From Candidatus Undinarchaeota archaeon (GTDB taxonomy: Archaea; SpSt-1190; JASMDC01), in contig CAZFHY010000009.1 in NCBI GenBank assembly GCA_964519305.1, forward strand, positions 75,130-139,129: a stretch of 64,000 bases of DNA, in the 5' to 3' direction. The translations under genes were made by a program, and so were the position numbers. Position 1 is the stretch's first letter. Each line of letters starts with the position of its first letter. The notes under the pieces were generated by a model that was not told where the DNA came from, ran no database searches, and worked only from the letters and a program-made list of their open reading frames with translations. Of the stretch, positions 8,952 through 30,855 are shown in pieces.

Positions 8952-9083
8952 TGGGCCCGACGGGATTTGAACCCGCGACAAACAGGTGTCTCCATCTCAT
9001 TGCCAAGTGGCTCGAAACACCCGATTTCGGGATGCCGCAGTGGCTTAAGAGCCTGCCGCTCTGCCAGACTGAGCTACGGGCCC
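8952..9083 (-). tRNA. tRNA-Lys(CUU) with 58-nt intron at 37/38 (8988-9045)
   Basis: GGGCCCG acceptor stem, GCTC/GAGC D-stem, GCAGG-CT-CTT-A|intron|A-CCTGT, GGTTCAAATCC T-arm; CTCT/GGAG central helix of a relaxed BHB motif. Confidence 0.93.
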
Positions 9084-30009: not shown

Positions 30010-30471
30010 ATGTCAGCTTTGAACGGCACGGTTGTCTCTGTCAACACGAGCACTGAGAAGGGCGTCCCCAAGGTCCCACAGGATTCCATCACACTGGTCG
30101 AGGAACATGGCGTGGATGGCGACGCTCACGCCTCGTCGACCTGGCACCGCCAGGTTAGCTTGTTGTCCATGGCCTCCATCGAACGCATGATGGAACAGGG
30201 AGTCGAGGTCAAGCCCGGTGATCTTGCCGAGAACATCACGGTCGAGGGGTTCGACGTGCACACCATCCCTGTCGGTACCCGGCTCAAGATCGGTAGTGAC
30301 GTTCTGCTCGAGATCTCCCAGATTGGTAAGAAGTGCCATACCGGATGCGCCATCCAGAAGCGGACGGGAAAGTGCATCATGCCCACCGAGGGCGTTTTCG
30401 CCAGGGTGCTCGCGGGCGGTACGGTGCGGTCCGGGGACACCATCCTCGTCGTCGAGGGCACGGCGGAGTAA
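30010..30471 (+). CDS. MOSC domain protein
   Basis: G..GDAHA...HRQVSLL, PG..AENIT, LEISQIGK.CH.GCAI....G.CIMP.EGVFA.V. Confidence 0.9.
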   Translation: MSALNGTVVSVNTSTEKGVPKVPQDSITLVEEHGVDGDAHASSTWHRQVSLLSMASIERMMEQGVEVKPGDLAENITVEGFDVHTIPVGTRLKIGSDVLLEISQIGKKCHTGCAIQKRTGKCIMPTEGVFARVLAGGTVRSGDTILVVEGTAE

Positions 30472-30486
30472 GGTAGTGGATTGAGT

Positions 30487-30561
30487 AGGCCTCTGAGATC
30501 ACCTCCTTGACTTCATCTTCCTGGCGTAGGATCAGGTCAAGCCAATCTTCTTCATCGGCCC
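30487..30561 (-). ncRNA. Box C/D dual-guide sRNA with its own TATA promoter
   Basis: GGGCC-G-ATGAAGA(C)-AGATTGGCTTGAC-CTGA(D')-TCCT.ACGCC.AGGA-AG-ATGAAGT(C')-CAAGGAGGTGATCT-CAGA(D)-GGCCT; TTTATAA at 30586-30592. Confidence 0.82.
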
Positions 30562-30600
30562 AAGGAGAGGTAAGGGACCGCGAGGTTATAAACCCTTCCC

Positions 30601-30855
30601 CTAGGACTCATCATCAGCGCGCTTGTCCTTGATGGTCTGGTCCAGGAAGAGGCGGGCGGCGATTATATGATAGCACTCGCCCTGGGTGAGGGTATTGTAC
30701 CGGCATGTGCACGACCAGCGGCGCTTCCGCCGGTGGTAAACCACGGAATAATCCTTCACGTCGAGATGGACTCGCTCCGGACCGGTCGACCGGAGGCTCA
30801 CACGCCCGTCCCGGACGAGAGCGGCCGCCTTGTGCCGTCTGGCAACTGAACCCAC
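30601..30855 (-). CDS. Small SWIM zinc-finger protein
   Basis: WSCTC.......ECYHIIAA (CxC...CxH). Confidence 0.7.
   Translation of the reverse strand: MGSVARRHKAAALVRDGRVSLRSTGPERVHLDVKDYSVVYHRRKRRWSCTCRYNTLTQGECYHIIAARLFLDQTIKDKRADDES

Follow-up and report, generated by a model that had tools for sequence, protein, structure and literature searches.

We report a candidate dual-guide archaeal box C/D sRNA of the type of Neq sR13 from N. equitans, with a TATA promoter of its own that would drive minus-strand transcription, at about 30561-30487 of the window (the whole stretch of 64,000 nucleotides analysed here, positions 75130-139129 of contig C9 in the Undinarchaeota genome G000); we give this assignment a probability of roughly 80%. 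Very probably the locus encodes a real C/D sRNA that pairs with two sites of the 16S rRNA, one in h44 and one in the 3' tail, and it is somewhat more likely than not that at least one of the two predicted nucleotides is methylated. The dual-guide design of sR13 was already known. What is new is its reach into another phylum, including a genome of 3.6 Mb, together with the retention of RsmA/Dim1 in all 17 genomes of that phylum and a D' register that switches between 1408 and 1409 among the members.

Organization of the locus

The sRNA is 75 nt long and lies in a spacer (30472-30600) that, according to the list of open reading frames, separates two convergent ORFs: one of 153 aa on the plus strand (30010..30471), which bounds the spacer on one side, and one of 84 aa on the minus strand (30601..30855; stop codon 30603-30601), upstream of the sRNA. 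Reading of the minus strand revealed the dedicated TATA box that the sequence-only reading had claimed, TTTATAA (30592-30586), which is preceded by a purine-rich stretch and starts 8 nt past the stop codon of the 84-aa ORF. A distance of 24 nt (30585-30562) separates it from the 5' half of the terminal stem, GGGCC (30561-30557), the partner of which is GGCCU (30491-30487). Within this stem, and on the same strand, follow the C box AUGAAGA (30555-30549; consensus RUGAUGA, with A and not U at position 5), the D' guide AGAUUGGCUUGAC of 13 nt (30548-30536), the D' box CUGA (30535-30532), recognized by sequence and by alignment with relatives, a D'-C' linker of 15 nt (30531-30517) with a possible small hairpin UCCU-ACGCC-AGGA, the C' box AUGAAGU (30516-30510), which aligns with xUGAUGA/UGAAGA/UGAGGA in relatives, the D guide CAAGGAGGUGAUCU of 14 nt (30509-30496) and the D box (30495-30492). 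The complete C/D'/C'/D architecture and its coordinates were confirmed in this way, except that no CUGA stands at D; the variant CAGA is called as the D box since it occupies the alignment columns that hold CUGA in relatives (CCGA in G003).

Three of the four boxes depart from consensus (C, C' and D), and only D' is a plain CUGA. In CAGA the GA of the sheared pairs is retained and the U is replaced, so that A faces A in the C/D k-turn, a position where C/D k-turns usually have U opposite U. The guide spacers are of 13 nt for D' and 14 nt for D, the second exceeding the ~12 nt typical of C/D guides.

Two other features were noted at this locus. The CUUGAC of the D' guide (30536-30541) has its complement in GUCAAG, where the C' box meets the D guide (30506-30511, minus strand); both strings are paired in the MFE fold of the sRNA, in its own genus only, and may form a self-masking helix or match by chance. 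The 84-aa ORF (30601-30855, minus strand) shows by eye a C-x-C ... C-x-H spacing resembling that of SWIM-type zinc fingers, and is kept in the same-genus genome G001 and in environmental relatives.

Pairing with the host 16S rRNA

A single copy of the host 16S gene was detected (contig C14, 33511-34979, of genome G000). Its h44 reads CCGCCCGUCAAGCCAUCCGAG and its 3' end GGAUCACCUCCU, followed by UAGAAC. Both guides were scanned against this 16S with 30 nt of trailer and against the 23S. The D guide forms 13 bp (12 Watson-Crick and one G-U) with GGAUCACCUCCUU, 16S 1529-1541, which is the sole match of at least 12 in the two rRNAs and bears out the complementarity to the 16S 3' end claimed before. 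The best all-Watson-Crick match of the D' guide covers 9 bp of h44 (GUCAAGCCA, 1405-1413). Here the sequence-only reading was right about the pairing with h44 and overestimated its length, which is 9 contiguous bases and not 12 because the host reads GUCAAGCCAUCC. An alternative site of the D' guide elsewhere in 16S has 10 bp, 3 of them G-U, and is thus rich in wobbles. Duplex energies were -22.3 kcal/mol for D and -15.4 kcal/mol for D', neither of which was attained by any of 1000 shuffled guides.

In C/D RNPs, the target nucleotide opposite guide position five is the one that fibrillarin methylates. Applied to the host sequence, this rule points to C1533 when counted upstream of CAGA and to A1409 upstream of the D' box, reproducing the two targets that had been named before the host 16S was read. 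The E. coli numbering used here was anchored on the fragments U1528-U1532, A1534-C1535 and U1406-G1410 of PMC5389701.

Three genome-wide scans for C/D sRNAs were made. A relaxed regular expression for the full architecture matched this locus alone in 3.63 Mb on both strands, and nothing in the reversed genome; this uniqueness, the 13-bp match, the duplex energies and the conservation described below indicate that the locus is more than chance. A guide-first scan was noisier: it listed 28 rows, compared with 6 for the reversed control, and most of them fell in GC-rich, coding-like sequence. A second C/D scorer run over the whole genome returned one unrelated candidate without rRNA target; two deviations in the C' box made it pass over the present locus. 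Rfam reported nothing at the locus at gathering thresholds; in E-value mode, archaeal C/D families alone aligned there, at a sub-threshold 13-15 bits.

Conservation in the phylum

A DNA search of 61 genomes gave a 97%-identical copy in the sole genome of the same genus and partial matches in small genomes of the same class. Complete homologues share the order GCC - C box - xxGUGGCUUGAC(N) - CUGA - linker - UGAUGA - xAAGGAGGUGAUNN - CUGA - GGC. A covariance model of them (R1) scored 73 bits at our locus and matched exactly once in each of 12 genomes out of the 17 in the class; these 17 make up the whole phylum as sampled. By family, matches were present in 1/1 genome of f1 besides our own, 9/10 of f2, 1/1 of f3 and 0/4 of f4; the E-values lay between 1e-15 and 1e-19 in 11 other genomes, and G003 gave 4e-8. 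As the 16S of our genome is 76.9-77.7% identical to that of f2, the sRNA is conserved over a deep split. For the five class genomes without an R1 match, a broader model (R2) gave weak or unrelated matches alone. A weak R2 match in G011 (C57:13187-13248, 21.2 bits) carries an h44-type guide, AAUGGCUUGACG, followed by CUGA and lacks an anti-Shine-Dalgarno (anti-SD) guide; family f4 may thus contain a relative with a single guide.

Contigs of environmental relatives offer a closer comparison. Their flanking ORF region (30593-30800) has accumulated 29 (X9) and 21 (X16) substitutions, and they show 0 differences in 30488-30592 (30504-30592 for X16); synteny with these contigs ends exactly at 30488. 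The C' and D boxes are kept in differing genomic contexts, and AT-rich TATA-like motifs occur ~20-30 nt upstream of the homologues in relatives. In the 14-sequence alignment described below, the 3-bp core GCC/GGC of the terminal stem is paired in 88% of cells. A 159-nt metatranscriptome contig from a relative (1 substitution, 1 insertion) spans just 30482-30561; it is a single contig, with possible DNA carry-over, and such contigs show neither ends nor strand, so it lends weak support to expression of the sRNA.

The host genome measures 3.63 Mb with 59.6% GC, yet falls in the same class and phylum as Undinarchaeota genomes of 0.6-1.2 Mb, with 16S ~77% identical.

Variation among the members

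The alignment comprised 14 members: our own genome, G001, G002, G003, G004, G006, G008, G010, G012, G013, G014, G015, G047 and N. equitans. Within the D guide, AGGAGGUGA is invariant in all of them, and the D' core is GGCUUGAC in 10 of the 14, GACUUGAC in two, GGUUUGAC in one and GGCUUGAU in one. Position 5 of the C box is U, A or G among members, with the UGA and the final GA kept except in Neq sR13, where the C box ends in GU. The D box is CUGA in 11/14, CCGA in G003 and CAGA in our genome and G001, and the CAGA is also identical in the contigs of relatives. The k-turn position opposite the second nucleotide of the D box reads U-U, G-U, A-U or U-C, and A-A in our genus; in this alignment it is free to vary. 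Linkers in relatives are short or have other hairpins (CCCCG/CGGGG in G010, CUCUCC/GAGGGG in G015, GC-UUCG-GC in G003).

The register of the two guides behaves differently. Before the D' box no spacer nucleotide is present in 6/14 members (our own, G001, G002, G008, G010 and G015), for which the N+5 position is 1409, and one spacer nucleotide is present in the other 8/14 (G003, G004, G006, G012, G013, G014, G047 and N. equitans), for which it is 1408. This switch fits the unexplained double mark Am1408 and Am1409 of N. equitans. The D register is constant, with C1533 in 13/14 members and A1534 in N. equitans alone. As to the strength of the D' pairing, the guide of G003 has a C-A mismatch at 1411, and the D' duplex of G001 would have 8 bp provided that its 16S, which is unassembled, matches.

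No 16S gene was found in G001, G008, G012, G013, G014, G015, G047 and G260, and the comparison of guide and target was limited to five organisms: our genome, G002, G006, G003 and N. equitans. At 1541 the guide forms an A-U pair in our genome, G002 and G006 and a compensatory U-A pair in G003, and in N. equitans pairing ends at 1540. At 1542 one extra A-U pair is formed in G006, and no pair in our genome, G002, G003 or N. equitans. The sequences of these five organisms alone indicate that guide and rRNA co-vary beyond CCUCCU. Covariation in relatives had been proposed as a check, and it is seen at 1541 in this set; in the terminal stem it is weak, with 1 pair changed on both sides. Either the paired nucleotides 1541/1542 are part of the mature 16S, or the sRNA engages the precursor.

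Distribution outside the phylum

A pattern scan over the genomes of 185,579 species returned 23 loci: 8 in DPANN MAGs labelled Undinarchaeota, Undinarchaeales or Altiarchaeota, 14 in bacteria, about the chance expectation by our own estimate, and one in N. equitans (AE017199.1:318777-319115), where the locus reads AUGAUGU - AGGUGGCUUGACU - CUGA - UUA - GUGAUGA - GAGGAGGUGAUA - CUGA. The combination of C' box, anti-SD guide and D box was found in 10 of 401 archaeal genomes (seven of f2, G047, G260 and G034), compared with 1 in the backwards control. G047, an archaeon outside the phylum, carries the full dual-guide design. In G260 (C256, about 1500-1580) a C/D sRNA has its anti-SD guide at D' (AGGAGGUGAUCA; N+5 = C1533) and a different D guide; as this genome belongs to an unrelated archaeal family, anti-SD guides occur outside the sR13 design. 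The match in G034 lacks an upstream C box and was discarded as coding sequence or chance. When two other phyla were searched with R2, G047 alone (1/17) and N. equitans alone (1/151 sampled, under stricter filters) were recovered, both being sequences already used to build the model. Outside the phylum the dual-guide design is rare and patchy among the genomes searched.

Comparison with known systems

Seistrup et al. (2017, NAR 45:2007; PMC5389701) describe Neq sR13 as an sRNA with complementarity to 1405-1415 in its D' guide, for Am1408, and to 1531-1540 in its D guide, for Am1534 within the anti-SD. In the same paper, Am1408, Am1409 and Am1534 were detected in N. equitans by MALDI-MS and RiboMeth-seq, and the sites that correspond to ours are stoichiometrically methylated there. 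The authors proposed that sR13 delays the folding of h44/h45 and replaces the RsmA/Dim1 checkpoint that is missing in N. equitans, and named Dennis et al. (2015; PMC4644070) as the source of the sRNA sequences; that earlier study had predicted modification of the residue equivalent to A1408 in S. acidocaldarius and in N. equitans. The N. equitans locus of our pattern scan matches the published description of Neq sR13 (PMC5389701).

Both sRNAs have the same guides in the same order, with GGCUUGAC as D' against h44 from 1405 and AGGAGGUGAU as D against the 3' tail; they are of similar size, each has its own TATA box, and the loci align box for box. The 16S ranges are 1405-1413 and 1529-1541 in our case, and 1405-1415 and 1531-1540 for N. 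equitans (PMC5389701). However, the D guide points to A1534 in N. equitans, with 1 nt between GGUGAU and CUGA, and to C1533 here and in 12 other members, with 2 nt, whereas the D' guide points to 1408 there and to 1409 here. The boxes of N. equitans are nearer to consensus and its D spacer is of 12 nt, compared with 14 nt. In addition, N. equitans is without RsmA/Dim1, which is present in our genome and in all 17 genomes sampled from its phylum. This likeness may reflect either common descent or convergence on the same conserved rRNA strings.

In Ignicoccus hospitalis, Gm1408, Cm1409 and Cm1533 were found experimentally, the last one with no known sRNA (PMC5389701). This Cm1533 is the very position predicted for the D guide here. 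The Iho sR56 of that organism joins a 1408 guide with a guide for U1380 (PMC5389701).

The Rfam families sR53 (RF01276), sR1 (RF01152) and snoPyro_CD (RF00095) resemble our sRNA in box order, guide spacing and terminal stem, and their models align over the full length, but scores of 13-15 bits compared with gathering thresholds of 45-49 place the sRNA in none of them. Bacterial TlyA 2'-O-methylates C1409 of 16S and C1920 of 23S. The ribose position marked in the decoding site would be the same; however, TlyA is a stand-alone protein enzyme, not RNA-guided, and its target base is C and not A, so the likeness is one of analogy alone.

Our literature search returned no paper that joins fibrillarin, archaea, anti-Shine-Dalgarno and sRNA, and none on sRNA methylation in Undinarchaeota. 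In the literature considered here, ribose methylation of both the decoding site and the anti-SD tail is shown in two hyperthermophiles alone, and an RNA is known for both in N. equitans alone. A guide that marks 1408/1409 and covers the anti-SD during 30S maturation, which is what the sequence-only reading had in essence suggested, is plausible, having already been shown in part and proposed in part for Neq sR13 (PMC5389701); as the mechanism is already in print, the advance is modest. Taken as a whole, that interpretation was partly supported.

Proposed role and alternatives

In archaeal C/D RNPs, L7Ae recognizes both the C/D k-turn and the C'/D' k-loop, and a Nop5 dimer bridges them. Genes for fibrillarin (283.5 bits) and Nop5 (208.1 bits) adjoin each other on contig C12 of the host genome, which also encodes L7Ae (98.2 bits); each score exceeds its Pfam cut-off. 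Two of the observations that the sequence-only reading had named as fatal to it, an h44 unable to pair with the D' guide and a genome without fibrillarin or Nop5, turned out the other way. RsmA/Dim1 (RrnaAD) is also present, at 170.6 bits, and is over the cut-off in 17/17 genomes of the class, that is, of the whole phylum sampled; the sRNA is therefore no substitute of RsmA in this phylum.

We propose that the sRNA would assemble with L7Ae, Nop5 and fibrillarin and that the RNP would contact the nascent pre-16S twice within the 3' minor domain. The D' guide, on the 5' strand of h44 (1405-1413), would bring A1409, and possibly A1408, into the active site of fibrillarin, presumably acting before the 3' strand of h44 is made or paired. 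The D guide, on the 3' tail (1529-1541, including the anti-SD CCUCC), would bring C1533 into a fibrillarin active site and would cover the anti-SD until release. Since the bound RNP would keep h44 open and the anti-SD unused, it would, besides methylating, probably time the late folding of the 30S, as has been proposed for N. equitans. Weighing against this reading are the deviating boxes with A facing A in the k-turn, the D spacer of 14 nt, the D' duplex of just 9 bp, the mismatch in G003, the alternative D' site in 16S, the Rfam scores below gathering thresholds and the patchy occurrence outside the phylum.

A further-reaching view of the same RNP, which we consider tentative and on balance unlikely, is that the sR13 type is an old, RsmA-independent checkpoint of late small-subunit assembly that works alongside RsmA/Dim1 in archaea related to Undinarchaeota, a 3.6-Mb lineage among them. 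The simultaneous hold on the 5' strand of h44 and on the 3' tail would then be what is selected, the methyl marks at 1408/1409 and 1533/1534 would either arise as a by-product or signal release, and the pairing to 1541/1542 would perhaps reach into the uncleaved precursor. If true, this would overturn the origin of the sRNA as a replacement of RsmA in reduced nanoarchaeal genomes.

The strongest rival, although improbable in our judgement, is an assembly chaperone or checkpoint RNP that acts by pairing only, in which masking and timing of folding are selected and there is little or no methylation, at least from the D guide. The D' register, unfixed between 1409 (6/14) and 1408 (8/14), would suit it, as would the D boxes CAGA here and CCGA in G003, the 14 nt from C' to D, and a pairing that extends to 1541/1542, where CCUCCU ends or has already ended, and that shows a compensatory change. 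Moreover, a role in delaying folding is the one put forward by Seistrup et al. (PMC5389701). However, the GA shared without variation by all boxes and the fixed offset of 2 nt, by which C1533 stays at N+5 in 13/14 members, look like selection for a catalytically competent RNP, and both the stoichiometric methylation of the N. equitans equivalents and the Cm1533 of I. hospitalis (PMC5389701) argue in the same direction.

Far less probable is that the SD-like sequence works on mature ribosomes or on mRNA, either by serving a gene downstream as its ribosome binding site or by titrating 30S subunits as a decoy, the latter having been offered as an option by the sequence-only reading. The string AAGGAGGUGAU is indeed a perfect SD, but no start codon follows at SD distance, the sole minus-strand ORF has a GUG within the SD as its start and continues, antisense, across the end of the convergent gene, and the flanking C' and D boxes are conserved across different genomic contexts; nothing in our analysis supports the decoy. 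Finally, a chance arrangement of box-like motifs beside an SD-like string in a convergent intergenic spacer, which short, non-consensus boxes and sub-threshold Rfam matches could suggest, is for practical purposes refuted by the conservation data, namely the R1 E-values and the perfect conservation beside a diverged ORF, along with one match in the genome and none in the reversed control.

The interest of the locus lies in the conservation of the same dual-guide design across a second phylum, mesophilic and marine, that keeps RsmA/Dim1; this retention is evidence against the published idea of an RNA that bypasses a missing RsmA. The family also provides 13 natural variants with which to test position versus pairing, among them the 1408/1409 registers, the CAGA and CCGA D boxes and the hairpin inserts.

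Other observations

Some minor features came up along the way. A tRNA match of 132 nt (54.8 bits) on the minus strand of the window at 8952-9083 is long enough for an intron, and the stretch just downstream of the 16S on contig C14 resembles, by eye, a tRNA with an insert. As by-catch of the similarity searches, canonical double-guide C/D sRNAs unrelated to ours were found in G039 (L010) and G005 (L101).
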